A DNA stretch of 63,864 nucleotides, filler included, from Bigelowiella natans CCMP2755 (Eukaryota; Protista; Cercozoa): assembly GCA_000320545.1 (NCBI GenBank). It is 5 parts of 5 records of this genome, joined end to end, with 100 filler letters (N's around TTAATTAATTAA, not from the genome) between each part and the next. Parts side by side here need not be neighbours in the genome. Positions count along the whole stretch, not along the records: positions 31,913 to 57,092 come from ADNK01002420.1; 4 more parts are not named here. One strand, given 5' to 3'. Below are positions 42,016 to 61,653 of the stretch, piece after piece (within the stretch, counting starts at the first letter, position 1; each line of letters starts with the position of its first letter). Under the pieces are notes generated by a model. The model saw only the letters and a list, made by a program, of their open reading frames with translations, searched no databases and was not told the origin of the DNA. Both the position numbers and the translations under genes were made by a program.

Positions 42016-42458
42016 AGCGGATGGGGGAGTTCGAATTATAAGCTCCTGCAAGTTCCTCAGTAATAAATCCCCGCTACTGACAGACATAAGGGCATTGGAG
42101 AAGTATTACGACAACAAAAATCGCCATGTCGTAACTTACGTATGCAGGACATCTGATGAGAAAAACTCTGAAACCATAGAATCTCGTCGATTCTACAACC
42201 AAATTCTTGCAACTAATTGAAAACGAAGGCCATTTCTATCCCAAAAAAAGGTCTTGCGGTGAACTTGGTGCTGAGAAATAAAATGGAGATATTTTGATCC
42301 GAAATTTTCAGATCTTGCCTTTGTTCAAATACCTGGAATGTACCAAAAACGGACAGAAATTCATATTTTTCACATGCTCTGAATCTGTCTCAAAGAGAAA
42401 ATCACCCGTGTTTTACTTTTTCTATGATGCTTGAACTCTGAATGCCCCTCAAAAAACA

Positions 42459-43690
42459 ATGGGGGCTACCAAATCAAGTGAGATCTCAGGCCTATCCCGC
42501 GAGGAGGTTGCGAATGCGATTTTCAGACACCTCGATGATGACAACAGCAAGGTTTGTGCGCATAAAATTCACTTTGCATCCAGATCTAGAGATATAACAT
42601 TTGCTTTCTCAGCGATTGGATGTGACGGAACTCGAGGGTCAGGGATGTGGAGACATGGTGAAGATGTACTTCGCAAACAGGGAACAAACTATGAACGAAG
42701 TTCAATTCGTAAACGCTTTGCTTGCAAAATGGAAACTTGGTAAATACAAAGTTAAAGCTATTTCTCAAGGAAAATAGTTATTTAACACAAACTGTTCTCT
42801 CCACAACACATAGATAAAGATCCAGAATACGAGAAAAAGGCCCTTCAACTCATCGAGACCGCTAAGTCGGTGAAGGTGGGAACTGCTGATGAAGAAAAGA
42901 AACTCTCGGTAATAACATTCACTTTGAAGATTGTGAAGCAATAAGTACGATATAGCAACCACTTCAACCATCTAACTACAGGAATGCAAAGATAAAGCTG
43001 AAATGTGTGGCCTTGTCTTCGAAGCTCTGGATGACGACAAGAGCGGGTGAGTGTTGACCGTTATCTTCATTGCGATCATGTGTCAGTATTTTTTCTCTTT
43101 AATAGATCTTTGGACCTAAAAGAAGTGATCAAGCAGCTGGATCCATACCATAAGAAAGCACAATTTGTCCTGGTGTGATTTTTGTGATCACTATAAATTT
43201 CAATCAAAATTTTTAAATGTACTTTGTGCACGGCATCTTACACTATGGTTTTTGATCTACAGAAAGAGGGTGGCCAGGTCGAGTATTCTATGAAATATTG
43301 GGAGGATATTTTCAAAGGATATGATAAGGTGGGTCGCGTTTGTTGATAACTTGAAAGCCACGAAGATTTCCATAACATTGTGTTTGTGTGTGATTTTTTT
43401 AGGATAAGAATGGCCACGTAAGCCAAAAAGAATTTACGTCTGCCATCGTTGAGAAATTCAAAGACAGTAATCACATAATCAAACTCTAACTGAAAGCGAT
43501 CAAATTTCTCTGAGTTTAACCTTAATAATTTGTTCTTGATTACACGGATGATATTTTTGGTGTAAATAATACCACAGAAGAGGAAAAATTATTTCTCTTG
43601 ATCCTTGCAAAGATGCTGAAGTCTGCCAATATGATCAATGCTGCTAAGGGAAAGAAGGGAGAGGCTGCAGAAGAAAAGAAGAAAGATTGA
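42459..43690 (+). CDS. N-myristoylated EF-hand calcium-binding protein, copy 1 (8 exons)
   Basis: MGATKSS start; EF loops DDDNSKRLDVTE, DDDKSGSLDLKE and DKDKNGHVSQKE; GT-AG introns; stop TGA 43688-43690. Confidence 0.85.
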
Positions 43691-44099
43691 AATCTTGTCC
43701 CCAAGTGTAATTCTATTACACTATTAACTTTCCATGGAGGCCATACGAACCAGTTTGCCGTTACAATATTGGGATAGCGCAAATTTGTGTTTATTTGAAT
43801 ATGCATTTTTGCACAGAATAACTGCATGGCATTCATACAATGGAAACCCTAATGTGCATTTTATATTTATTACACAGTAATGTCTACATGTCATTACGAT
43901 TCGAAAATTGGAGCATAGCATCAGTTAGCCATCGTGCCATTTGATGACAAGATGTGTAGCCGCATTTGACTGCAACCATGCGCACATGCTAAACGCACTC
44001 ATGCGCATAGAATCGAGCATTTCTACTTTTGTTGAAATCACAATCGAATGCTCCACCACTATTTAGCTACGCTAGCGCATAGCCACATGGGGTGGGCAA

Positions 44100-44593: not shown

Positions 44594-46080
44594 TCTCTCT
44601 CCCTCCCTCTCTCTCCCGACCGCGAGCATGCAGCCAACAAAGCAGTTCTCTGCTTCTCTCATGTGTGTTTTTGCAACTGTCTGTCCAGTCTGCCCAGCTG
44701 TGTGGCGGCGTGACATGGACTTGAACGTTCGTTGATTCCTGCCCCGTTCTGTCATCTCTTTTTCCCAAATGGACATGGAACTTTTTCTCCATTTCTGCTT
44801 TCCTCAACGTTCATCCCCTCTCAAGGCAGCGGCTCTGTCATGGGCATCATTGCCACGTCAGACTGAATTGAAGAAGCGCCACCTGTCCAGCAATGCCGGT
44901 GGGCCGAATTTCAAAAAATTCGGACTCATTCAAGATTCGCTCGATCCCTGCGACAAAGATCTTCCATGTCGCAGCATGGAAATGGATCACGTTTGGAATC
45001 GGGGATTCTGTTTCAATGGGATGGTGTTTTTGGCCCTGCGACAACACAAAGTGTCCAGATTTTCTAGTTTTCAAATGTCTCGACATTGAGCATCATCTGC
45101 TCACACGCAGAGGGGCTCCAGGGGCTGTTTCAAGATCTTGGCATGTCCTCGTCGTGCGCCCAAAAATTTCATGAAAGAGTGCCGCCATGCTGCTACCTGT
45201 GCGCCTTCAGCGACGGCGAATGTCAATTTTTGTGCGGGTTGTTTTCCTGGACCTCAATTGCAGACACAGTGACAGTGCATGCATCACGTGTGTGGTGTTG
45301 CATGTCCATCATTGCACCTAGATGTCAACGTTGCACATCATCCCAACAGACGCATGAAGTCCATGACACCAACAGACACATGAGACGGCAATGAAGTGAT
45401 CAAATCTTTTCAATGGTCATCCCAATGTGGCCATGCAAATCAGTGGCTGCAGCGCTCACATTGCATCTGCTAGTTTGTTGCGTTTCCACCATCAGCACGC
45501 ATGCCAGCATGGTCATCGAGCGCGTGGTCCGCTTTCCGTGTGCGGGAACATCACAGCCAGTGGAAGTAGACCGAGATTCCAACTCCGTTCTGAACCAATG
45601 CACAGCTAGACAAGAGGCAATCAATGGTTTGTTGGGACGTGCATGAGCATGTGAGCGACATCGATGACCCGATGCGATCGAAATTGCAACTTGAGGGCAA
45701 TTCCAGAATTGCCAATTGGGACAGACGTTCTGTTGTGTTTGTTGGGGAGGAAGGGGTCAAAGACTAGCTAGTCAGAAGGGGGGCCAGGTCCATGAGCGAT
45801 TGCGTGAACTTGCTGCGTCACAAATGGGCTCAAGTGGTGGATGGCACGTGAAAACGTTCGCCAAGTTGTCAGCGATGGTGTTCCACCCACTGAAACACTG
45901 GACGAGGTCACATCTGGACGTCGTTGATCTGTCTCCACGTCTTCTCCTCATCGCTGATCCATGCCACTCAGTGGTTCTGCATGCATCTGTCACGGTGGTC
46001 CCTTTTTGTTCAATTCTTGACCGAATCACTGTTGGCTGGTGGGACACGGCACCCGGGTGAGCCACTAGAGCTAGAGAGAG
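44100..46080. other. TpA-depleted intergenic island; remaining TA almost only in CTAG
   Basis: Manual count about 23 TA: 20 in CTAG, the others CTAT, CTAC and GTAG. Confidence 0.88.
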
Positions 46081-46189
46081 GGGAACAAATGCCACCCTCG
46101 CAACCGGAAAAATTAATAATGTTTGAGAATTCAGGATTCCCGCACATTCCTCATCCCAACAAGATGTGCTAATGCACTGCTGACAAGCT

Positions 46190-46515
46190 TGTAGCGCGTA
46201 CCACTACGCGGGCACAAGTCACGTGCGACAACAAAGGGGTTGTCGCGGATATAGAATATAGATAACGTAGATATTAATACAGCATAGGCACGTGGGTTCC
46301 GGCGGGACTCATGGCAGCACACCGGAAGTGTGCTGCCCCACGTGCGGCGGCATTCGCGAAAGCTTCGCGAATGATTACGCAGTGCACGATTTAATAAAAA
46401 TATAATCTTTAATAAAAATAAACACAACTCTTCAAAAGGAAGCAAACGTGCCTTTCCCCCCCCCTGCCTACTTGTGCACGTAGCGCCTCGGCCTGTGAAC
46501 ACCTTACGCGCAACA
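46190..46515 (+). repeat. 5' LTR
   Basis: TG...CA ends with a 10/11 terminal inverted repeat; AATAAA signals inside. Confidence 0.96.
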
Positions 46516-46554
46516 ACCTTTGGCTTCCACACACGGGAAACGATTTGACTAACA

Positions 46555-49500
46555 ATGTCACAGCAGCTAGAAGAACAGCAGGACTTTGGCTCGCAGGCCG
46601 TGCAAGGGCACGAGCAGAAACAGGAAAGGAAGGGCGATACGGACGCTAAGGAAGGAGGAGGAACACCTCCACAGGCACCGCCGGGACCAGCACCCGGGAT
46701 TAAGAAAGCAGATGCAGCAGCAGAGGCACTGGAGAACTTCTACGAGGCGGACGACGAGGACGTGGCCGCCGAAAGCAAGAAGGTCGTAATGGCATTACGA
46801 GCCTTGCGACCCAGGGCGAGCAACTACGCCAAACTGAAAGTATCGATAGAATACAAGTATCAGACACATGATGTTTGGGCAGCTATCATGCAGGACATCA
46901 TGGATTACGAAGCAGACTTACCTCCAGAGTGGGCAGCTTTGTTTAGGAACGACGGGGGTCTGGGCGCCTCGCGGGGGACGACCCAGAGCACCGTCAAGCA
47001 GCAGCAGCCGGTACAGCGGAACACCCAGTTCATGTCTGTTAAAACAGCACCGGTTATGATAACGAAATACAACGGGAAAAGAGGTGAGGCAAGGAGGTGG
47101 TGGAAGAACGCTAGGAGTATACTCTGCGACTTTACCCCTAACCCCACCGAAAACGACAAGCTCAAATGGCTAGCTATAATAAAGCAAGCCATGGACCTTT
47201 ACGAGACAGGCAGGACCCGGATCAGGCAGCTAGAGAAAATACACACTACAGTTAGTGGGCTACGAGACGTTGAGGCGATAATGAAGGCTTTTGTAAATGA
47301 ACAGGATGCTAACTCCCTACCCCAGGCTATTAGAAAATACAGAGCAATGATGCAGCATGAGAGAGAACCTGTTAGAGACTTTGCCACGCGCTTCCAGGAT
47401 ATGATCGACGAACTACATGATTTTAATTACAACACAGGTGATGATCAGGCAAGGTTTGAAGAGTTCAAGTTAAAGATAAAGGAATCCACTTACGTTACGG
47501 AGAAAGGCTACACCACGATGGAGGCAGCAGTGCAGGCTATATCCCTACGCGAGCAGGAGCAGGACCGCAAGTTTACCAGCCCTAAGGTACCTGGCATAGG
47601 AAACATTAACGCTATTAAGCCGCAGCGAGACTGGTACAAGGACAGGGAAGGTAACCGACGTTGCGGATACTGCTCACGTAAAGGGAAACACACCGCTAAA
47701 GACTGCAGAGACAGGAAAGAAGGACGACCCAGGATGACGATCAGGCAGCTCAACGAACACTACGAGAAGTTAAAGAGAAAGAAAGGCAGAGGACAAGGAT
47801 ATAACAACAGCAAATGGCAAGGCAGCAACAACGGGAAGAACAATAAATATAAGAACAAAAAGCAGAACAGTATCAATGCTATACAGCAGCAGATAAACGG
47901 AATATTAGATCACCTTAAGCAGGCGCCGACGAAGACAGCAGTACCAGCAACGCAGGACCAAGACAAGCCCATGACCCTAGACGACATAAAGAACTTAGGA
48001 GTATGCAACATTAATGACGAAGACGCTAACAGGACTATCAAAGTTGCTATGACCAAGGTTAAAGTTAAAGACAGCTACGGAGACTACAAGAAACTACCTG
48101 CCCTTTGGGATAGTGGCAGCATGCCGAAGTCCTTCATAAGCCTAAGCACAGTAAGAAGGTTAGGACTATTGGATCAAGTGACTAAGAAAGAACGTAAATA
48201 TGCTCAAGCAGACGGAAGCTCTTCCATGAAGACCGTCGGTGAGCTAATGCTAAAGCTACAGATACCTGGCAGCGACGCGGAGACCCAAATCAAGACCCGA
48301 GTAGCCATGACTTTATCCATGGAACTACTCCTCGGACAGGATGCCCTAGAAAAATTAGGGGGGATCATATCATTCTACAATCACAAGATATACTTTGCTA
48401 AGTTGCCAAAGAAGTCAGGCAGGACCATCAGCCAGAACATGATACGGCTTGACGAGTGGACCTCTGAGTCAAGCGTTAATGCGTTAGAGTTTATGGACCT
48501 AGCGGACAACAAGCTACCTACACCTACCGAGCTACGGAAGAAGAACCCCGGCAAGACCATCCGACAGATAACGGAGCTACTGGACAAGACCCCCCCAGCT
48601 GATGATTGGGATATCGACAAAGGCAAAAAGTACATTAATAAAATATTAAACGAGAAGTACTCTGACATCACCAAGCCGACGACGAAGCCCTCCAGCAAGC
48701 TTACCCCAGTAAAGATCGAGCTAAAGAAGGGATACGAAGAGTGCATCATCAATGACCCAGAACATAGGCGACCGGAAGCGGACTGGGAAAAGATAGAGTG
48801 GCAGATCAATGAATGGGCAAAGGAAGGGAAGATAGAGCCAAGCAACTCACCATGGAACGTGAGACATGTGCTAGCTAAGAAACCTACTTACCCTTTCTTC
48901 CGCCTGGCGCACAACTTCATCCGCCACAACCGAGTAATAAAGAGGATCCAGACACCTACACCAAGGATAGATGACGTTATTGAACACGTCATAGGATACA
49001 AATACTACTCTTCCCTAGATAAAAATGAATCATACATGCAGACACCCATCCACAAAACCTCCCGCCCCATTACCGCGTTCTCCAGCAGGCACAGGAAGTG
49101 GCACTTCGTCGTATTCCCTTACGGCCTAAGCATATCAGGGGATGCGTTCAGTAGTCAGAACTACAGGGCATACACACATGATGGGATGGCGTCTGTGTTG
49201 TGGGTGTTTGTGTTTGTGTATGTGGATGATGACATAATATGTACCAACACAGTCGTCGCTCAGATCTTCCTCCTGGAAAATATATTTATTAGGTTTGCAC
49301 ACTTCGGTTTTACTATTAGACTGCAGAAGTGTACATTCCTAGCTACAAGAATCAAGTGGTGTGGATATTACCTGGAGCAAGGCCGCATCACCCCAAACCC
49401 CGAGAAAGTAGCAGCACTACAGCAAGCCCCTAAACCTAAGAATGCAAAGGAGTTAAAGTCATTCTTGCAGACTGCAGCTTGGATACTACGTAGGTTCTCC

Positions 49501-51528
49501 CCTACCTACGCTAGGACTGCAGCTGCTTTTACTACTGCTTACCGGAAGGAGAACTCTGTAGGCCTCAGCTTCGCTAAGGTGTGGGCCAAGGCTGGCCTTG
49601 ATGCCCACTTCGATAACCTAATAAAGTTATGCAGCAACACCCTATTGAATGCTAAGCTAGACACTACTAGACCAGCTACCCTATGGACAGACTGGTCTAA
49701 GCTAGGTATGGCTGCTGTACTTACCCAAGACCAGCAGATCATACGGGTGTGGGGCAGGGCCTGCACAGCAGCTGAGGCCAAGTACAGCCCTACAAAAGGA
49801 GAGTATAAAGCCATGACTGAGGCGCAGAGGAAACTAAGATACTACCTGCTGTCGGTGCCCAGCTTCACCTTAATGACTGACCACAAGCCCCTCCTAGGCA
49901 TCGACCGCAAGCTCGAAGCGCCTAACGATGAGTATGCAGCTATGAGGGCGGACACGGAAGAGTTTAGGGACAAGAGGACAGTGGTCTACGCACCAGGAGA
50001 CAAGCAGCTTGCTGACTATTTCAGCAGGCTGTTCGAAAAGAAAGTCCCTACCCAGGTCACCCCTATGGTTAACGCGATTACCTTCGAGGACGGCGACTTC
50101 CTGCCTGAGCCAGAGGAGCTCCAGCACCTTCAAGAACACCTGGATAAATACAAACACAAGCATGAGGTACTTAGTGATAGGATATATGTATACACTAATA
50201 ATGTTAGGCGTACCTACGTGCCACGGCGGACCAGGGGAGCCCTTCTCTTTACCGCCCATGGACCTGCACACGTAGGAGAAAACCATATCACTGCTCTACT
50301 CTACCATTACTACTGGCCCTACAAGCTAAAAGAGATAAGGACATACCTGCGTGGCTGCAGGTGCTCCAGCTTGAAGGCGGCAGGCGTCGCCACCAAGGAG
50401 TCCAGCAAGAGCCGTGCATCTAAGAAAATCAAAGCAAGGAACTTCTTAGATATCGTGCAAATTGATGTTTATAAGTACGATGGCTATCACTACCTTACCT
50501 TCGTTGATGTGGCCACTGGAAAGTGCTGGGTTAAAAAGATTATCAAGGTCAACGTTGCTAAGAAGAACAAAGGCTTATATAAGCAGAGGCTTACTAACTG
50601 CTACCGTACCTGGGAGTCTGAGCTCCAGGCTATCCCTGATGAAGTTAGCATAAACAAGATACCAAAGAAGTTACATGTGGATAATGAGACCTCTCTTCTA
50701 CAGCTACCACACCCTAATATTGATGCCTCACCTGTATACTATGCCCAGTCCAACTCCAAGGTAGAGCGACTCCACCGCACCTTGGCCAACCTAAGCAGGA
50801 TAAATAGCACCACACCAGACAAGATACAAGGGTTAGTAAACGACACCTTCACGTCTGGGGGAGGTATCAAGGATAAGGAGAGGGAAGAAGGCGACGACAA
50901 CGACGACGATACCGAGAGCGAAGACGAGAAGGTCCCGTACGATGGCCGAGTTCTAAAGGAAGGACAGTATGTTAGGGCCAAGGTAAATCTGAGATCGAGA
51001 AATAAACAAGACCCCTTCTGGGGTGGCGTTGCAAAGGTTACCGAGAGGAAGGGGAGGAAGCAGTACTACATCTATGATGGGAACAGGGTCACCTTGCGCC
51101 ACATCAGTCACCTAAAGAATTATGATATCGGTGAGAAGCTCCTAGAGGATGTTAAAGTAAACCCTACTGTGTGGGAGCGAGCAATGCCTTGTTTAGGACC
51201 CCGACCTAAGTTCGATGTGGAATATGGAAACAATAAGGTCAGGGTGAACGACGATTGGCGCATGAAGATTGTCTATCTAGGCTACCCTGGATTACGAAAT
51301 ATGGAGAGGGTAGCTATGAAAATAAAGGACGGAAAATATCAGCTACTCTACCTAGCTGTTCCCGACTTACCCTTTGAGCACTGGTATAAGGTCCTGGGGG
51401 ACCTTGATGCAGAGGGCTGGTATGGACACGAACCTAAGGACGAAGGTGAGTTCTGGGTAAGCGACAAAGGAGATAAGGTTAGAGAGGAATCTATTACCTG
51501 GTGGTTGGTGAAGTTCCGAAAGCGATGA
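46555..51528 (+). CDS. Gag-Pol polyprotein, 1657 aa (Gag zinc knuckle, protease, RT, RNase H, integrase, extra C-terminal domain)
   Basis: CGYCSRKGKHTAKDC; LWDSGS; SPWN...YVDD; TDWSKLGMAAVL...YSPTKGE...TDHKPL; QIDV...FVDVATG...HVDNE...SNSKVER. Confidence 0.96.
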   Translation: MSQQLEEQQDFGSQAVQGHEQKQERKGDTDAKEGGGTPPQAPPGPAPGIKKADAAAEALENFYEADDEDVAAESKKVVMALRALRPRASNYAKLKVSIEYKYQTHDVWAAIMQDIMDYEADLPPEWAALFRNDGGLGASRGTTQSTVKQQQPVQRNTQFMSVKTAPVMITKYNGKRGEARRWWKNARSILCDFTPNPTENDKLKWLAIIKQAMDLYETGRTRIRQLEKIHTTVSGLRDVEAIMKAFVNEQDANSLPQAIRKYRAMMQHEREPVRDFATRFQDMIDELHDFNYNTGDDQARFEEFKLKIKESTYVTEKGYTTMEAAVQAISLREQEQDRKFTSPKVPGIGNINAIKPQRDWYKDREGNRRCGYCSRKGKHTAKDCRDRKEGRPRMTIRQLNEHYEKLKRKKGRGQGYNNSKWQGSNNGKNNKYKNKKQNSINAIQQQINGILDHLKQAPTKTAVPATQDQDKPMTLDDIKNLGVCNINDEDANRTIKVAMTKVKVKDSYGDYKKLPALWDSGSMPKSFISLSTVRRLGLLDQVTKKERKYAQADGSSSMKTVGELMLKLQIPGSDAETQIKTRVAMTLSMELLLGQDALEKLGGIISFYNHKIYFAKLPKKSGRTISQNMIRLDEWTSESSVNALEFMDLADNKLPTPTELRKKNPGKTIRQITELLDKTPPADDWDIDKGKKYINKILNEKYSDITKPTTKPSSKLTPVKIELKKGYEECIINDPEHRRPEADWEKIEWQINEWAKEGKIEPSNSPWNVRHVLAKKPTYPFFRLAHNFIRHNRVIKRIQTPTPRIDDVIEHVIGYKYYSSLDKNESYMQTPIHKTSRPITAFSSRHRKWHFVVFPYGLSISGDAFSSQNYRAYTHDGMASVLWVFVFVYVDDDIICTNTVVAQIFLLENIFIRFAHFGFTIRLQKCTFLATRIKWCGYYLEQGRITPNPEKVAALQQAPKPKNAKELKSFLQTAAWILRRFSPTYARTAAAFTTAYRKENSVGLSFAKVWAKAGLDAHFDNLIKLCSNTLLNAKLDTTRPATLWTDWSKLGMAAVLTQDQQIIRVWGRACTAAEAKYSPTKGEYKAMTEAQRKLRYYLLSVPSFTLMTDHKPLLGIDRKLEAPNDEYAAMRADTEEFRDKRTVVYAPGDKQLADYFSRLFEKKVPTQVTPMVNAITFEDGDFLPEPEELQHLQEHLDKYKHKHEVLSDRIYVYTNNVRRTYVPRRTRGALLFTAHGPAHVGENHITALLYHYYWPYKLKEIRTYLRGCRCSSLKAAGVATKESSKSRASKKIKARNFLDIVQIDVYKYDGYHYLTFVDVATGKCWVKKIIKVNVAKKNKGLYKQRLTNCYRTWESELQAIPDEVSINKIPKKLHVDNETSLLQLPHPNIDASPVYYAQSNSKVERLHRTLANLSRINSTTPDKIQGLVNDTFTSGGGIKDKEREEGDDNDDDTESEDEKVPYDGRVLKEGQYVRAKVNLRSRNKQDPFWGGVAKVTERKGRKQYYIYDGNRVTLRHISHLKNYDIGEKLLEDVKVNPTVWERAMPCLGPRPKFDVEYGNNKVRVNDDWRMKIVYLGYPGLRNMERVAMKIKDGKYQLLYLAVPDLPFEHWYKVLGDLDAEGWYGHEPKDEGEFWVSDKGDKVREESITWWLVKFRKR

Positions 51529-51579
51529 AGGTCTAAGGGAATAAGGAAGGAAGGAAGGAGCAACGTGACTTGGGGGAGG

Positions 51580-51905
51580 TGTAGCGCGTACCACTACGCG
51601 GGCACAAGTCACGTGCGACAACAAAGGGGTTGTCGCGGATATAGAATATAGATAACGTAGATATTAATACAGCATAGGCACGTGGGTTCCGGCGGGACTC
51701 ATGGCAGCACACCGGAAGTGTGCTGCCCCACGTGCGGCGGCATTCGCGAAAGCTTCGCGAATGATTACGCAGTGCACGATTTAATAAAAATATAATCTTT
51801 AATAAAAATAAACACAACTCTTCAAAAGGAAGCAAACGTGCCTTTCCCCCCCCCTGCCTACTTGTGCACGTAGCGCCTCGGCCTGTGAACACCTTACGCG
51901 CAACA
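51580..51905 (+). repeat. 3' LTR
   Basis: Matches 46190-46515. Confidence 0.96.
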
Positions 51906-52191
51906 AGCTGGATACGCCTCAAGCAAGTGGGCAGGGCGGGTCGGGCTTGCGAGGTGGATTGATGAAACTCGAGAGAGTCACCCGAGATTTTCTTCCATTA
52001 GCAAAAAACTCAGATAAATATCATCCAAAAAGCTCAGATCTTGCCTTCCTTTCCAAAGCCGGGAACGTACCAAAAACGGACAGAAATTCATATTTTTCAC
52101 ATGCTCTGAATCTGTCTCAAAGAGAAAATCACCCGTGTTTTTACTTTTTCTATGGAGCTTGAACTCTGAATGCCCCTCAAAAAACAAAACA

Positions 52192-53474
52192 ATGGGGGCT
52201 GCGCAAACCACAGAGATCTCAGGCCTATCCCGCGAGGAGGTTGCGAAGGCGATTTTCAAACACCTCGATGATGACAACAGCAAGGTTTGTGCGCATAAAA
52301 TTCACTTTGCATCCAGATCTAGAGATGTAACATTTGCTTTCTCAGCGATTGGATGTGACGGAACTCGAGGGTCAGGGATGTGGAGACATGGTGAAGATGT
52401 ACTTCGCAAACAGGGAACAAACTATGGACGAAGTTCAATTCGTGAACGCCTTGCTTGCAAATTGGAAACTTGGTAAATACAAAGTTAAAGCTTTTTCTCA
52501 AGGAAAATAGTTATTTAACACAAACTATTCTCTCCACAACAATACATAGATAAGGATCCAGAATACGAGAAAAAGGCCCTTCAACTCATCGAGACCGCTA
52601 AGTCGGTGAAGGTGGGAACTGCTGATGAAGAAAAGAAACTCTCGGTAATAACATTCACTTTGAAGATTGTGAAGCAATAAGTACGATATAGCAACCACTT
52701 CAACCATCTAACTACAGGAATGCAAAGATAAAGCTGAAATGTGTGGCCTTGTCTTCGAAGCTCTGGATGATGACAAGAGCGGGTGAGTGTTGACCGTTAT
52801 CTTCATTGCGATCATTCGTCAGTATTTTTTCTCTTTAATAGATCTTTGGACCTAAAAGAAGTGATCAAGCAGCTGGATCCATACCATAAGAAAGCACAAT
52901 TTGTCCTGGTTGAAAGAAACCACTATGAGTTTGACCTGAAATTTGCAATGTACCCCTTACATAATCATTTTGATCTGCAGAAAGAGGGTGGCCAAGTCGA
53001 CTATTCTATGAAATATTGGGAGGATATTTTCAAAGGATATGACAAGGTGAATACTGTTCGATCGCAAACTAGAAAGCCACGAAGATTTTGATAACACCCT
53101 CATTATCTGCATCGTCGTCATCAACACTGCCATCTCCATCTGTTGGCTTGATACAACATTGTTCTCTGCAAATATTTCTTTAGGATAAGAACGGCCACGT
53201 ATGCAAAAAGGAATTTTCGTCTGCCCTCATCGAGAAATTCAAAGACAGTAATCACATAATCAAACTCTAACTTGGAACCGATCTAGTTTCGTTGAAATTC
53301 ATTGTTATAGTTCATTTTCAGTGCTCTGATAACATCTTTTGCTACGTAAATGATATCACAGAAGAGGAAAAATTATTTCTCTTGATCCTTGCAAAGATGC
53401 TGAAGTCCGCCAATATGATCAATGCTGCGAAGGGAAAGAAGGGAGAGACTGCAGAAGAAAAGAAGAAAGATTAA
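52192..53474 (+). CDS. N-myristoylated EF-hand calcium-binding protein, copy 2
   Basis: Paralog of 42459-43690 with the same exon structure; MGAAQTT start; stop TAA 53472-53474. Confidence 0.85.
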
Positions 53475-54260
53475 AACGTTTTCCACAAGTGTATTTCTAT
53501 ATTATAAAATATCAGCTGTGACATACATAATCTAAGCACTGTAGCCGCAGCTTTGCACAGCTACATTAGGATGACTATTAATAGAATGCAATGTCTTCAT
53601 TCATCATTACATCCGTCTCCTATACAGAAGTTGTTGTCCATCATGTGGCCCTTGAGCGAGGCCATGCACCCAATTTACCGATGCAACATTGGCTAAATTT
53701 CTGCACACACTTGAATTTTCATTTTGCGCTGGATCGTTGTATAATGTTTAGATGTTGTAAGATTGGTCGTTAAGAGCTCAAAGCTAGCAGGGAGTGCGGC
53801 ATGCCTCGCTTGTAGTCATCTATCTAAAGCCATATATTAGCAATGCAATTATGGCAAGACAATCAACATGTACGTGCAGTCGCTCCTGCTGCCCGCCGGC
53901 CGCGCACACATGCGCGTAACTAGCTACGCTACGCTGCTAGCTGGGTCTAGAAGTGCACACATACATACAGGCGCGACATGCACCCCTAGGTATAAATTAC
54001 TAATTCGCAAAATTTTGTCAAGTTTGACCAATTGTATCTAGCAATCAGCAATGATGATACTGTAGTCACAGCAGCTCTGGAAATTGATGTTGTGTGGCAA
54101 GTCTTAGAATCTGCTAGATGATCATCTAGGCAACGTTTTGATTTGCACATTCGCGCCGCGAGACTAGCGTAGCAGCGAGAGAATGACCTCCGGGCCGGCG
54201 CACATTTTTTTGGCTACGATGCGACACATTACATGCTGTAGTGCCGCGCACAAATGAAAA

Positions 54261-54621
54261 CACAACCAGCAGAAACTTGTAACATCAGCTTTGCGTGCAT
54301 GGTGGCCGCACCAAACTTCATCAAAAAGCTTGGAAAACCACAATAAAACATTCCACTTTGCATATTATGCATGTGCACTCCGGTGGACTCTGACGAGCTG
54401 CTGCATGCTAGCCTGGTGGCTTCCAGTGCGCTCAAACACCTTCACAACCAGCAGAAATTTGCAACATTGGCTCTGCGAGCATGCCAGCATGGCGGCCGCA
54501 CAACATTTTTTTTTTTCAAAAAGCTTGGAAAACCACAAAAAAAAACATTGCCATGCATTGCGAATGCACTCTGGTGGACTCTGACGAGCTTCTGCTGGCT
54601 TCCAATGCGCTCAAACACCCT
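54261..54621. repeat. Diverged tandem duplication of about 180 bp in a TpA-poor region
   Basis: Both units begin cacaaccagcagaaa and share tcaaaaagcttggaaaaccacaa, ggtggactctgacgagct and tgcgctcaaacacc. Confidence 0.85.
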
Positions 54622-55767
54622 TTAGCGTTGTGTTGAAAATTGAAGCGCGCAAAAGGTGCAAAAACTCGATTTTGAAATTTTTTTGCAACGTGACGTTCAT
54701 TCTCAAAAAAATGTTTTTTTGCTCCGAAATTCAAACCGTGTGTAACATTAGTTTGCCAAAAGTGTGCGCGATGCTCAATTGTGGATTTGCATGTCGTGCG
54801 ATCGAGCCATCGTGTTCAAAACAGCGTGAGAATTTTCCAAATCTGAGGGTTGGAAAAATGACAAAAAAACCCTGCAAAACCGCATGCAGAGCAGGAAATG
54901 CGCGCGCGTGCGCCCTGAAACTTGCTCGAGCGTTGTTTCTCACCATGTTCGAAAGTTTTCAAGCGTCACTTGGTGTGGTGTTGCGTTGCATGCTGCAGCA
55001 CCCAGAGTGTTACATGGTTTCTGCTGGTTGTGAATTCGCTGGTTCTAGAGTTTGATCGGCATTTTCTAGTTTTCTCAATATTCGTTTGAGCCTGGGAGCT
55101 TTCATTCGCACCTAGATGTACAGACTTGACGCGATTAGCCACATCCACAGTAGATCTGCACGCACATATAGTCTAGCATGGTCTCTGGCATCTTTGCTCT
55201 AGCTAGATTCGATCGCATGTTGGATCGCACATACATCAGCATAAATCTGACATTTAGACATTTTTATCTTGTAGCTTGAGAGCACGAGAGAGATCGATAA
55301 TCGATGAACTAGATGGCTCGCCATCGATCTGTGCGCGTGTAAGCCACAAACATGCACGATCGATCATTGCGGGTCCACATGTAGCAGCAGCCGCGCGCGC
55401 GGCAAACTAGCAAAGAACGACAGGAACGCCCAGAGCACGTTGCAGATATGCTGCATCGCAATCGATCGAATCGGCATATTTACTTGTGAATACAACTTTT
55501 TTGCTTTCTCGGTACATGTGAGAGCAACATCAAGTCCTCTAATCGTACTTCGCCGTCCTTGGAGGAGCAGCAGCAGGTTGATACCCACCCCCGTATCCTC
55601 CTCCTCCTCCTCCTCCTCCTCCTCCTTGATAACACAAAACACGCGGAAAGGCAACTTAACCCCGTTTTTACGTCGAGCAGATTAGCGTGTTGGAAGTAGA
55701 TACAGTGTGTGTATGTGTGTTTGTGCGTGTATGGGGGGATGTTTCAGAGTACTACATATTATACACG

Positions 55768-57300: not shown

Positions 57301-58088
57301 TTTATTCATAATTCATTGGCATCTATAGTGTGCCATTGTTCGGTTTCGTAAGTCGCAAACGGTCCAATGGGGCCAAAACTGATGTATCAACAAGCAATGC
57401 TAAAATTTCACACACTGTTTTGTAATCATCCTTGCTAGCTTGTGATGAAGCGTTTGTGTGGTTCATTTGTGATGCTCGTAGATGGTGTGCTGCATGTATA
57501 AGTGCGCACATGAGCAATGGGTCTAGCTAGTTGCATGTGTGCACATGCATCGTGTCACGATGCGATGCAATCATCAATGCTGCAATCTCGCAATGTGATG
57601 TCATGATGTGATGTGATGAACTCGCATGCATTGTTGACTGTGAACGCGGTGACACAGAGACACGTGTGAACACTGAATGATTGTCATGCAAAGAACACGT
57701 GGACAGGTCACATTGCCATGCGCAGCCATGTGCAATGCATGCAACATGCATGCCCCATCTCATGCAACGTACAGAAGAAATCAGACGAGTAGTGATTGCA
57801 CAATTAAGCGACTGCTGCGCGATCGAAATGCGCGACATTTCAAGACTCAAGACCGATCGATCGAAACAATGACATGCAATGAGATTGCATGATTGCACGA
57901 AACGCATCTAGCTAGTAGTGTGGGGAGCGAATGCATCTCATTGCTAGCTGATCCACAGGCTGTTATTAGGTGCATGCATGCTGCATATGGACACCAATTT
58001 GTAGACGCTATGATCGCTGTATATACATAGCGAATATATATGCCAAACGGACTCATAGCCGCGCACAAGTGAAATATTGCCCACCGTG

Positions 58089-59519
58089 ATGATCACGCGC
58101 AGCGCGCGTGGCAACAACAAGCACCAGACACCCAAAAAGGGAAGAAAGCACAAAAAGAACCAACACGCAACGTTGGATCTCGATTCAGAATGCAATGATG
58201 ACGACTGTGGCTCTGATAGGAAAAGTCATGATCTGTCTCAATGCCTTCGCGAAGTTACTTCAACACTGTCTGCAACAATGGAACGCAAAGAAACTCCTCA
58301 GTGGAACACAATGAAAAAATTGTGTGAAATGCTGACCACAATGGTCCAGTTAGTTGATGAGAAACAACAACAATTGCAGCAAGATCAAAAAGACATGCAG
58401 GAGGAAAACGCTGGGCTTAAAAACAAATTACTGAAACTTGAAGAAGAACTGACTTATATCAAGGAACATCAGAAGAATGGCACAATGGAAGCTCAACCCT
58501 CCTCGATGCAACGGACCTCGAGAACTTACGCTAGTGTCACAACCTCATCACGCGCTGATGAACCTCATGGTCGAGATAAATATCCTGAAGCAGAAGTACA
58601 AAGACTAGCTGAGCGAAAGAATAGCCAGAGTTGGCAAGTTCCAAAAAGTCACGCCAGGAATCAAAGGAAATACAACCGGAAGTATAAACAGAACGTGCTC
58701 ATATTGGAACTTGACAAAAAAGCCATGCTGCAAGCGGGGGGCGCCATTATGGCCTCCGGCGACCCATGTCGCACTGTTCTCACTGGCAAAAAAAAACATG
58801 CCAACGAACCAACAAGTGAGGAAACAAACACAGCAGATCCGAGGGATGAAAACCGCGACACACTGACAGAAGTTAACACCGAGGAAGAAGAGACTAAATG
58901 CCTAGCCGGAAAGAACGTAGAGGATTTGAACCCATCCAGTGAAAAAAAAGATGTTCCAGATATTGGGAAAAACCTGTCCAAAATAACTCCAAAGTTGATC
59001 GATGCACTAGGATTGAACGAATTCCAAATGCACGTAGCTTTCCAAGCGAAATATGGGAAGGACTTTCAAGGAATCCAATTCAAATCTAGAAATAAAACCC
59101 ACCTAAAAGTGTTCTTCAAAGGCTCCAGAGAATCTAAGATGGATGCTTACCTGGATCTGCTTAACACCGAACATCAGTTAGGACAAGGATCATTCCTTCC
59201 CTCACTCTTTGGATTAGTGACCACAGTCAGAGCAGCTAAGTCAAGGCCAAGTAAGCACTCTGTAGTTCTGAGAGGCCCAAGGCTGGGACCTAACGAGCAG
59301 GAAAAATCAACACGAATTGGAATCATCAAGCAGATAATCGAAACCAACATCGATGTAAAAGTCGCAGCAATAGAACCTCTCGGCAAGGGCCCTCTACTTC
59401 AGCTGTTTGTGCACTCGCATGAAGAGGCCACCAAACTGCTGAATTCACAAATCACATATCAGGGCAGCTACCTACGATTCAGGGCATATGAAAACAGAAG
59501 GACACGTAAATATGGTTAA
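58089..59519 (+). CDS. LINE ORF1 protein (coiled coil plus RRM-like C-terminus)
   Basis: About 476-aa ORF directly upstream of ORF2; heptad-rich QQDQKDMQEENAGLKNKLLKLEEEL; TYASV motif. Confidence 0.75.
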   Translation: MITRSARGNNKHQTPKKGRKHKKNQHATLDLDSECNDDDCGSDRKSHDLSQCLREVTSTLSATMERKETPQWNTMKKLCEMLTTMVQLVDEKQQQLQQDQKDMQEENAGLKNKLLKLEEELTYIKEHQKNGTMEAQPSSMQRTSRTYASVTTSSRADEPHGRDKYPEAEVQRLAERKNSQSWQVPKSHARNQRKYNRKYKQNVLILELDKKAMLQAGGAIMASGDPCRTVLTGKKKHANEPTSEETNTADPRDENRDTLTEVNTEEEETKCLAGKNVEDLNPSSEKKDVPDIGKNLSKITPKLIDALGLNEFQMHVAFQAKYGKDFQGIQFKSRNKTHLKVFFKGSRESKMDAYLDLLNTEHQLGQGSFLPSLFGLVTTVRAAKSRPSKHSVVLRGPRLGPNEQEKSTRIGIIKQIIETNIDVKVAAIEPLGKGPLLQLFVHSHEEATKLLNSQITYQGSYLRFRAYENRRTRKYG

Positions 59520-61653
59520 TCATTTGAATCTCCCCTACTACTACCAAAACATACGCAGTAAAAACGGAACTGAACAAGGCAGGCAAAGAATAAATAGAAG
59601 ATATAATATGTTAACAGAAATGATAACCACCAACAACATCGAACTCGCCTGGTTTGGGGAAGGCCGCCTCAAAGAATCGGAGAGGCTGCATCCTCCAGCG
59701 GGATACGAAGTGATTCGGACGAGCGGCTCCTCTGGGAGCTTTGGATTAAGAAAAAAGAACACAGATATAATTCATATACCTATAGATGATAACAATTACG
59801 ATATTAGTTTTTTCATACACAGCATTGAAAAATATGCTGTCATAATGGTGTACCTCCAGCCACACCAAAACATCTCACATCTGAAAGAGAGATTAGATTT
59901 CATAATGAACATCATTCGGAAACAGAAATGGAAAAAATACATCATCGTGGGGGACACTAATGCTAAACACTCCACCTACGATGTCCGAAACCAAGAAGAT
60001 AGACGTGGCAGATACCTACACCAGTGGTTGTCGGATAACAACATCATGATGGTCAACCCTGGGGAAGCCACATATTTCAGAAAAGGAAACACAAGCACAC
60101 TTGATCATGTGCTGTGCTCCTCAAACTTCGCACACCAAATAGAATATCAGATGGCCAACACCACGACAAGTGACCATTTCGGTATCCACTTTGGAAAACC
60201 TGTGGCAATCCATCAACAGACTTCACCAATGATATATGACATCGACAAATTCGATGTAAAACGATTTGACGAAAAATTGAATAATATTACCGAACGCTTG
60301 CACCAGCGCATACTAAACGTTCAATCGGAGGCTGATGCAAAAAAGCTTGAACGCTGGTTCTGGGACTTTACCGGAAAAGCTTTTAATAGCTGCACACCTA
60401 AAAAACGACAACGTTGGAGTCCAATCAAGCCATACCAAAACGACAAAAAATATAAATCCATCAAAGATCAACAAGAAAAATTATTTAGATCCTTGAAACA
60501 CGAAAGGAAATTTCGGAAGAGAAAATTATTAGAAACCAAGATCCAAGAAATCAACGCCGAACTTGAACGAACCACCGAAACCCTTCAGTACGAAGCATGG
60601 CAATTATTCTTGTCTCGCTTCGAAAAATACAACAATGGGAATCATACCAGAATGCTGTACAAATTATTCCAAAAATCCAGAGGGCGGGATAAATTCGGAG
60701 GACTCGATGGCGAAACCTCTGAAGAAAAAAAATGTGAAGTGTGTGTTGCCAAATGGAAACATATCTACAAACCACACCCGTCAGACAAGAAAAATCGAAC
60801 CTTTCACGCTGAAACTGAGGCCTGGAGAAATACCTTCAGGAAAAATGAAGACAAAAAGATCCACAGTGTTAATTCATACAACAGAGATTTTTCTATGCAT
60901 GAACTAAGAAACGTGATCAACAAAGCATCACCGTACAAGTCTCCTGGCGATGATGGTGTTCACCTAAACATGTTGAAAAAAAGCAAGAAACTCCATCAAC
61001 TGTGGTTAGCTACATTCAACACGTCATATAGATGGGGTACCCGAGATGGCTCACGTAAGGCGGCCATTTTTTGTCTCATCCCTAAGGCCAACAAAGAACT
61101 TAACACCCCTCTCAACGGGAGAACGATTTCTCTCCTACAAATAGCTTCAAAAATAGAAGACAAACTAATAGAACAACGGCTCCGCGAAGCTATACCCCCC
61201 AAAAACATTAGCATACATCAGTATGCATTCATGAAAAATCGATCCTGCGAAACTGCACTCACAAAGATGACGCAGTCAATCGAGGATGGAGTATATAACA
61301 AAAAGCTTGCAGCCATCCTGTTGTTTACAGATGCCTCTAAAGCTTATCCAAAAGCCTGGCATTCCGGCATGATACGCAAGTTACATGACAAATACGGAAT
61401 ACGAGGCTCGCTATTGCTGTGGATCGACGACTGGCTCAGAGATCGTACCGCCAGATTCAGATTTGGCAATACTCTCTCTGAGCACATGAACCTTGGGAGC
61501 GGCGTCCCCGAAGGATCATCTCTCAGCTGTTTCCTTTTCATAACCTATTACGACATTTACGAACATATTACCAACACAGATTCCAAATATACTGTGACGA
61601 CGTTACCCCCTACAAATTGTTTTTCGCCAAACCGATGGGGAAAATGCAGATGA
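59488..61653 (+). CDS. LINE ORF2 (APE endonuclease plus reverse transcriptase); frameshift just before YCDD
   Basis: YQNIRS, GDTNAKH, TLDHVL, SDH; KSPGDDG, IPK, RTISLL, QYAF, DASKAY, GVPEGSSLS; YCDD at 61590-61601 lies in another frame. Confidence 0.93.
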   Translation: MKTEGHVNMVNHLNLPYYYQNIRSKNGTEQGRQRINRRYNMLTEMITTNNIELAWFGEGRLKESERLHPPAGYEVIRTSGSSGSFGLRKKNTDIIHIPIDDNNYDISFFIHSIEKYAVIMVYLQPHQNISHLKERLDFIMNIIRKQKWKKYIIVGDTNAKHSTYDVRNQEDRRGRYLHQWLSDNNIMMVNPGEATYFRKGNTSTLDHVLCSSNFAHQIEYQMANTTTSDHFGIHFGKPVAIHQQTSPMIYDIDKFDVKRFDEKLNNITERLHQRILNVQSEADAKKLERWFWDFTGKAFNSCTPKKRQRWSPIKPYQNDKKYKSIKDQQEKLFRSLKHERKFRKRKLLETKIQEINAELERTTETLQYEAWQLFLSRFEKYNNGNHTRMLYKLFQKSRGRDKFGGLDGETSEEKKCEVCVAKWKHIYKPHPSDKKNRTFHAETEAWRNTFRKNEDKKIHSVNSYNRDFSMHELRNVINKASPYKSPGDDGVHLNMLKKSKKLHQLWLATFNTSYRWGTRDGSRKAAIFCLIPKANKELNTPLNGRTISLLQIASKIEDKLIEQRLREAIPPKNISIHQYAFMKNRSCETALTKMTQSIEDGVYNKKLAAILLFTDASKAYPKAWHSGMIRKLHDKYGIRGSLLLWIDDWLRDRTARFRFGNTLSEHMNLGSGVPEGSSLSCFLFITYYDIYEHITNTDSKYTVTTLPPTNCFSPNRWGKCR

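Follow-up and report, generated by a model that had tools for sequence, protein, structure and literature searches.

The locus and its C-terminal extension

The window (the whole 63,864-nt stretch of Bigelowiella natans DNA analysed here) contains an intact Ty3/Gypsy retrotransposon at positions 46190-51905 (Table 1). This assignment was supported by direct long terminal repeats (LTRs) with TG...CA ends, a 4-bp target duplication and the order of the domains matched in Pfam, namely gag (weak), protease, reverse transcriptase, RNase H and the integrase zinc finger, which is the Ty3/Gypsy order. The initial annotation had claimed that Pol runs on after the integrase into extra residues. These were confirmed as the last 126 codons and the stop of the 1657-residue open reading frame (ORF), which is single and intact, and the quoted peptides were all present (DVKVNP at 51148, KFDV at 51208, GYPG at 51280-51291, YLAVPDLP at 51349-51372, HWYK at 51379 and ITWW at 51493). 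The best overall explanation of this tail, to which we give roughly an even chance, is that it is a DIRS-derived, inactive Dam fold that would serve as an integrase-borne binding module biasing insertion.

Two distant gag-pol/pol proteins (P0011 and P0032) were found to terminate in the same tail, at 33-36% identity. The motifs FD, GYPG, YLxVPDLP, WY, FWV and ITWW are invariant across the three tails (in the window, FD at 51211-51216, VPDLP-x3-WY at 51358-51387 and FWV at 51451). Pairwise identity in the tail core (85 residues, 24 of them invariant) is 39-41%, as compared to 40-47% for the integrase core, 43-55% for RNase H and 28-35% for the protease of the same trio, while the N-terminal 41 residues of the tail are only 12-28% identical. 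Since the tail core matches the integrase core in conservation and GYPG is invariant, the tail is deduced to be maintained by selection and not to be a decaying remnant. Random decay was ruled out by the presence of GYPG in 3/3 tails, and the term "degenerate" originally applied to the domain is better replaced by "repurposed", its core being conserved across three distant elements.

Three protein searches for further relatives of the tail returned B. natans-type records, P0011 and P0032 only; metagenome contigs gave one contig only (L002), and viral contigs yielded a single chance match of 22 residues and, when searched again, nothing. A search for related elements with an intact NPPY/F motif had been recommended. 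Two relatives with the tail were obtained, but both carry GYPG, and no intermediate element combining this tail with NPP was found in these protein, viral and metagenome searches, which is a weak negative.

Table 1. Features of the retrotransposon and its immediate flank, in window coordinates
Feature	Position	Strand	Details
TpA-poor flanking block, mutator signature, outside the element	44620..46050	.	8 TpA in 1431 bp
Left target-site duplication, AGCT	46186..46189	.	right copy at 51906-51909
5' LTR	46190..46515	+	326 bp, TGT...ACA ends, identical to 3' LTR
gag-pol ORF, single, 1657 amino acids (P0001)	46555..51528	+	without stop or frameshift
Aspartic protease	48052..48414	+	Pfam PF13975, E 0.0022; LWDSG at 48103
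Reverse transcriptase	48772..49389	+	Pfam RVT_1, E 2.4e-8; YVDDD at 49219
RNase H	49597..50049	+	Pfam RT_RNaseH, E 2.1e-14
Compact integrase	50218..50829	+	Pfam Integrase_H2C2, E 0.0022; foamy virus integrase, E 0.0042
Integrase C-terminal module, 60 amino acids, conserved	50941..51120	+	34-48% identity among three elements
Predicted Dam-like pseudo-methyltransferase domain, C-terminal	51148..51528	+	conserved motifs; profile and fold comparisons
Purine-rich tract, likely polypurine tract	51535..51579	+	from sequence; precedes 3' LTR
3' LTR	51580..51905	+	identical to 5' LTR; U5 end likely carries the first exon of the antisense RNA
23 distinct GT-AG introns	47230..51818	-	transcript-contig joints; 56-286 nt, median 103

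Sequence and fold comparisons with Dam

The tail had been likened, by motif order and spacing, to the Dam-type domain of DIRS elements, and this likeness held in a profile test with controls. The DIRS-type reference was one (L102, also L107) of 13 loci obtained by scanning viral contigs with the DIRS motif of the initial annotation itself. Its Dam-like domain matches PF05869 best in Pfam (E 0.003-0.005, below the cut-off) and follows an RNase H-like region, which we take to be the DIRS arrangement, the RNase H and DIRS labels being our own assignments from familiar motifs. The three-tail profile scored 18.4 bits against this domain (pairwise P 1.1e-7), and hhalign aligned 81 columns (E 0.0015, probability 17%). 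In the controls, the 12 other loci with the same motif scored 3.7 bits or less, and 0 of 2000 motif-fixed shuffles reached 18.4 bits (mean, 3.7; best, 16.6). The order and spacing shared by the tail and the DIRS Dam comprise a helix, Asp, a strand, the Pro motif, a helix, VP-x-[WL]P-x3-W, a strand, F and the last strand. Further sequence searches for DIRS-type Dams gave the same contig again or prokaryotic/viral types only. The RNase H-Dam frame of this viral contig (L107:2-829) has FPPF as motif IV, so the catalytic Asn is absent there also.

Fold prediction pointed in the same direction. AlphaFold was run on an alignment of the three tails only, with no methylase included, and gave a model with a mean predicted local distance difference test (pLDDT) score of 49.9, or 55-67 over residues 51-100; the single-sequence model (pLDDT 39.2) was unusable. 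The low-confidence alignment-based model has four strands and four helices; it reads helix, strand, helix, strand, helix, strand and last strand, with a strand-helix-strand-helix-strand-strand core. In a wide structural search of the PDB, 49 of the best 50 rows were folds of S-adenosylmethionine (SAM) methyltransferases, as classed by us from titles, the exception being SepF. The best rows were KsgA (Z 5.8, root mean square deviation 3.9, 113 residues aligned) and then PH1948, and a second structural alignment gave a best Z of 5.5, with T4 Dam at 4.9. Foldseek ranked a phage DNA N6-adenine methyltransferase first in its viral library (E 0.058), and adenine methyltransferases were named in 6 of the 50 rows. 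For the P0032 tail, the second of the three matches listed by Atlas was a cluster with 14% PF05869 members; its score of 0.81 is a level reached by shuffles a third of the time, so this was treated as a lead only.

A number of results weigh against a Dam origin. No methyltransferase family was matched by the tail in Pfam, PHROGs, NCBIfam or PDB sequences at E values up to 10. PF05869 was matched by none of the three tails in Pfam, the PHROGs scan gave one unnamed family (E 0.077), and of two scans of PDB sequences one gave a single collagenase row (E 0.49) and the other was blank. The hhalign alignment to T1-type phage Dam placed GYPG over NPPY but was not significant (E 0.23). A prokaryotic/viral Dam profile built from 98 sequences, which were picked from 118 NPP-motif proteins by their T1-profile score, aligned to the tails at E 0.083 in the wrong register and inside the range of 60 shuffles, and gave the three tails -1.4 bits or lower; none of the 118 proteins exceeded 4.3 bits. 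Masking the motif reduced the DIRS comparison to 0 bits. The DIRS link hangs on a single reference sequence, found with the very motif under discussion and aligned at an hhalign probability of 17%. Atlas gave no usable match for the window's own tail. The tail model is of poor quality (mean pLDDT 49.9), structural Z scores under 8 may reflect just a common arrangement, and the recommended AlphaFold and Foldseek check gave no Foldseek match at E 0.001. The methyltransferase folds that fill the list of the wide PDB search are all weak matches.

The similarity to the DIRS Dam is thus judged to reach beyond the selected motif yet to depend on it. Since four weak lines agree (the DIRS-type Dam profile score, the fold searches, the Atlas lead and the motif order), Dam ancestry is considered likely though unproven. 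An independent alpha/beta domain unrelated to Dam, with a Pro/Trp pattern resembling the DIRS motif by chance, would be consistent with the blank library scans, the failure of the prokaryotic Dam profiles, the dependence of the DIRS score on the selected motif and the middling fold Z scores. It was nevertheless deemed improbable, as the sequence, fold and language-model leads converge on one family even though the model alignment included no methylase, and as motif order and spacing match the DIRS Dam from the helix and Asp through to the last strand.

Absence of the NPP motif and relation to known elements

Active N6-adenine methyltransferases carry motif IV as [NDS]PP[YFW]. The proposed replacement of NPP(F/W) by GYPG was supported in that GYPG is invariant in 3/3 tails and NPP is absent, but the register of GYPG relative to NPP is ambiguous by one residue. 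In the alignment to T1-type Dam, the G lies opposite N, while in that to DIRS-type Dam, the Y lies opposite the N/F position. Neither register supplies N, D or S, and the tail therefore departs from the active pattern in both. Erosion of the SAM motif, also proposed, was only partly borne out: the motif-I Asp (in FD) is kept in all three tails, but the segment behind it is lost. From this Asp to GYPG there are 21-23 amino acids in the three tails, as compared to an Asp-to-NPP spacing of 29-47 amino acids in 94 of the 98 prokaryotic Dams and 40 in the DIRS-type Dam. The SAM-binding segment is at least 7 residues shorter than in any of the 94 prokaryotic Dams measured. The SAM-side half of the domain is therefore both shortened and variable (12-28% identity), while the substrate-side half is conserved.

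If Dam derived, the domain is very probably inactive, with catalysis and most SAM binding predicted to be lost. With conservation in its substrate-side half but not in its SAM-side half, we take the domain to show the pattern expected of a pseudo-enzyme retained for binding. The earlier suggestion of a probably inactive methylase fold is accordingly kept in a qualified form, given that four weak lines agree but none is significant alone in a database search and the prokaryotic profiles fail.

Ty3/Gypsy elements with a Dam domain have been reported as DAM-LTR retrotransposons (Fernandez-Moreno et al., May 2026, bioRxiv 10.64898/2026.05.21.726589). According to the main text of that report, DAM domains moved from DIRS to LTR elements at least four times, and five lineages carry them (green algal, chloro-ochrophyte, ichthyosporean, Pyropia and Euglena). 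The domains were detected by hidden Markov model (HMM) at E 1e-5, have a five-stranded sheet with flanking helices and carry Asn-Pro-Pro in almost all cases; deposition of N6-methyladenine (6mA) is favoured there, yet no activity was seen. Further features of the group are a place within the eukaryotic DAM clade and a host that encodes AMT1. Bigelowiella, Rhizaria, Cercozoa and chlorarachniophytes are absent from that main text, while its supplements (880 data sets) may include B. natans; the species is likewise absent from the main text of PMC12695648. The present element resembles DAM-LTRs in combining a Ty3/Gypsy reverse transcriptase, a DDE integrase and a Dam-like domain inside Pol, for which a DIRS origin is inferred. 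The published domains are detectable by HMM at E 1e-5, almost always with Asn-Pro-Pro, whereas the B. natans element passes no HMM, has GYPG in 3/3 tails and has a shortened SAM half. Because HMM detection and NPP, two of the working criteria of that group, are both lacking, the element is best called a DAM-LTR-like derivative and is not filed as a member.

These comparisons also bear on whether the tail retains methyltransferase activity through an unusual active site, marking new copies with 6mA as proposed for DAM-LTRs. The invariance of GYPG and of the motif-I Asp would fit such an enzyme, as would the report that DAM-LTR insertions are richer in 6mA than other LTRs in three species (10.64898/2026.05.21.726589). 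However, N, D and S are missing from the motif whichever register is taken, the segment for SAM binding is shortened and only 12-28% conserved, and according to the same report even NPP-bearing eukaryotic DAMs gave no methylation in Escherichia coli. Retained activity was thus deemed very improbable.

With the Dam/methyltransferase domain of DIRS1-type elements, the tail shares motif order and spacing from motif IV to the last strand, and the DIRS1 domains were also judged likely inactive in the account available in PMC4738411. The DIRS-type example used here differs in that its domain comes after the RNase H-like region, keeps xPP[F] and has 40 residues between Asp and motif IV, while the B. 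natans tail follows an integrase. In having an additional module at the integrase C terminus, the element resembles chromoviruses. It differs from them in fold and in the lack of a chromodomain, as no Chromo match was obtained in Pfam for P0001 at E values up to 10 or for P0011 and P0032 at E values up to 1.

The Dam-in-Ty3/Gypsy architecture is therefore already published, and what is new is an intact family with a conserved, apparently dead domain in a culturable host, together with the spliced, probably antisense RNA described below. A literature search limited to mostly open-access journals found no report of an LTR element with a catalytically dead Dam domain. That the domain has lost the catalytic motif and yet is conserved, in three distant elements, to the level of the integrase argues that binding is in itself reason enough to retain it. 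Lineages such as this one escape HMM screens at E 1e-5.

Proposed function of the tail

We propose that a Dam-type methyltransferase fold was captured from a DIRS-like retroelement and fused behind the Ty3/Gypsy integrase. The inactive domain would act as a DNA- or chromatin-binding hand that helps the integrase to grip DNA and, in travelling with the integrase, would bias insertion sites. Chromodomains at the integrase end steer insertion, and by analogy the tail may stay on the integrase as a binding module with a similar bias. Since there is no linker or obvious break between the tail and the integrase module, a part in integration is somewhat favoured among the binding roles. The single insertion site observed has a TpA-erased block on one side and, 287 bp downstream on the other, the ATG (52192) of a gene-like segment that is duplicated. 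The two copies of this segment (42297-43716 and 52023-53500) are 85-91% identical and have a gene-like frame starting with MGA. The suggestion that AGCT could be recognition DNA was rejected, as AGCT is the target duplication of a single insertion and offers no evidence for a site, and the loose ends at the LTR in one metatranscriptome (X16) continue differently.

The main alternative is a role in packaging, reverse transcription or localisation instead of the choice of targets. The domain would then be a dead Dam/PCIF1-like fold with affinity for the RNA of the element or for a host transcription factor, e.g., RNA polymerase II. DIRS elements keep the Dam domain without having a DDE integrase, and the two best fold rows were KsgA and a putative RNA methyltransferase, both of which speak for this role. 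Such binding was also proposed for the inactive DIRS1 methyltransferase domains, described as derived from PCIF1, in the account available in PMC4738411. On the other side, the tail immediately follows the integrase module, at the place of targeting domains, and the fold rows all lie within 1 Z unit of one another and are uninformative on the ligand. This role was deemed rather unlikely, and the integrase-borne module is preferred.

The TpA mutator and the family

Hypermutation of TpA to TpG/CpA in foreign DNA in B. natans has been described in a mutation-accumulation study (Mettrop et al., bioRxiv 10.64898/2026.01.13.699255), the main text of which contains neither "LTR" nor "retrotranspos". 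The adenine-directed mutator invoked in the initial annotation is evident here in TpA-poor blocks, comprising the one next to the element (Table 1) and others at 5600-8000 (2 TpA in 2401 bp) and 54500-55000 (3 in 501 bp), with a weaker one at 57520-58000. These blocks are rich in TpG/CpA, which is the published signature. Of the 13 TpA left over at 44620-46189, 9 are preceded by C (CTA), a possible sign of context preference.

The family itself has been struck. P0025, a B. natans gene model that is a copy of the tail and the LTR start, has 21 amino-acid changes, of which 17 fit TA-to-TG/CA, and 13 of its 16 exposed codons are changed. Because the changes are of this type, the mutator also strikes LTR retrotransposons, and the family is not immune. 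The likeness to the published hypermutation lies in the TpA-to-TpG/CpA changes in the flanking blocks and in one element copy; the difference is that this family has both hit and unhit copies of one sequence. B. natans gene-model proteins match the element's protein at 100%, and the tail was aligned by 26 of 28 B. natans-type protein records, 23 of the 26 at 98% identity or more (a count of gene models, not of copies). The element was also recovered as a single 5420-nt contig without differences in two DNA runs. The near-identical gene models and the difference-free assembly show that the family is young and homogeneous. As the family is intact, with many near-identical copies, and the alga is in culture and has had its TpA mutator measured, insertion preference, methylation and mutation escape are readable from ordinary long-read data.

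TpA occurs at 0.070 per base in the gag-pol frame, as compared to 0.035-0.057 in the long interspersed nuclear element (LINE) of the window and to 0.041 in host coding sequence (10.64898/2026.01.13.699255). General TpA avoidance by the element was rejected on account of this TpA-rich frame. The same excess would fit counter-defence, i.e., that the domain covers TpA sites or acts as a decoy for the adenine mutator so that new copies escape erasure of TpA to TpG/CpA. The 23 of 26 tail-aligning proteins at 98% identity or more and the adjoining block with 8 TpA in 1431 bp are in keeping with it. The claim of such a role is however weakened by the tail copy in P0025, struck at 13 of 16 exposed codons with 17 of 21 changes of the mutator type. 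Youth alone accounts for the intact copies, virophage DNA is reported to be TpA-rich as well (10.64898/2026.01.13.699255), the TpA excess may partly come from antisense splice signals, and no link between domain and mutator was seen across species. With the family open to attack and its intact copies explicable by youth, counter-defence was considered improbable and the inactive, integrase-borne module was again preferred.

A spliced, probably antisense RNA

Two marine metatranscriptomes (X15 and X16), each from a separate study, gave contigs with joints across the element; the DNA runs X1 and X4 showed none. The contigs carry no strand information, and the antisense strand was deduced from the intron ends. 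In one contig comparison, 14 of the 15 joints shown (23 in all) ended in CT..AC, and in the second, 11 of 12. A total of 19 of 20 junctions checked were minus-strand GT..AG introns, the LTR junction being read from contig pieces. The metagenome contig L002 is recorded without a molecule type; it has 13/13 minus-strand GT-AG junctions, nine of them common to X15. Five junctions recur in both X15 and X16, and a transcript-derived protein (P0022) begins across one further junction. Three of the introns lie in the region of the Dam-like domain (51112-51167, 51206-51370 and 51434-51497, minus strand). Because the spliced RNA is likely antisense, RNA over the tail is no proof of sense expression. 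Unspliced pieces over the tail (51219-51369 in X16 and 51395-51534 in X18) may come from either strand.

No long ORF was found in the spliced antisense RNA, the longest Met-started frame over 49425-51905 being 73 amino acids, and each antisense frame of L002 contains 18-20 stops; a protein-coding role was rejected on these grounds. Splice motifs were compared with a null preserving codons and dinucleotides (11 motifs per strand, P values uncorrected). On the antisense strand, the donor motifs GTAAG (10 versus 5.2 expected, P 0.010) and GTAAGT (5 versus 1.6, P 0.006) and the branch motif CTRAY (25 versus 19.2, P 0.017) were modestly enriched, while GTA was depleted on the sense strand (z -3.3). 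Acceptor enrichment was absent under this null, the enrichment seen under a codon-usage null having vanished, and the LINE of the window showed no such splice-motif enrichment. The antisense introns may follow as a by-product from the A-richness of the sense strand and a permissive spliceosome, or they may be selected.

The Drosophila telomeric element TART is described in PMC1636488 as having several spliceosomal introns in its antisense transcripts and a spliced product without a long ORF. It differs in being a non-LTR element with 8 introns in subfamily A and 4 in subfamily B, several of them in repeats of the untranslated region, whereas the 23 introns of the B. natans element tile the coding frame of an LTR element. 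No LTR element with multi-intron antisense RNA across gag-pol was found in the literature search, which was again limited to mostly open-access journals. The RNA offers a lead of its own on the ways in which a parasite without introns deals with a host rich in them.

The tail and the antisense RNA could be joined in a single reading in which the element is disguised by two devices, a dead Dam reader on the integrase and an antisense strand with at least 23 working introns. The reader would place new copies beside active genes, and the introns, which would persist through retrotransposition, the genomic RNA being of the opposite strand, would make each insertion resemble an intron-rich host gene and so evade the adenine-erasing defence. 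We regard this combined reading as improbable.

Other features of the element and the window

The integrase has an HH-CxC zinc finger and a core of D1304, D1376 and E1404. The spacing equivalent to D1376-E1404 is 27 residues in all three elements (P0001, P0011 and P0032), as compared to the usual 35 between the second Asp and the Glu. In Pfam only the zinc finger was matched, with no match to an integrase core at 50218-50829. An SH3-like tail had been placed between the integrase and the extra residues; a conserved 60-residue module does lie there (50941-51120), but it had no Pfam match, and the SH3-like label is presumed from general resemblance. A possible primer-binding site starting with TGG lies at 46521-46540, 5 nt past the 5' LTR, and the window contains no tRNA gene. 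Many of the B. natans gene models (P0003-P0010 and P0012-P0031) are pieces of the element joined to neighbouring sequence and are probably annotation artefacts.

Elsewhere in the window, the LINE-type element at 58059-61653 comprises ORF1 and an endonuclease-reverse transcriptase ORF2 that runs into an assembly gap, and a run of TTAGGG-type repeats at 12583-12776 ends at an assembly gap.

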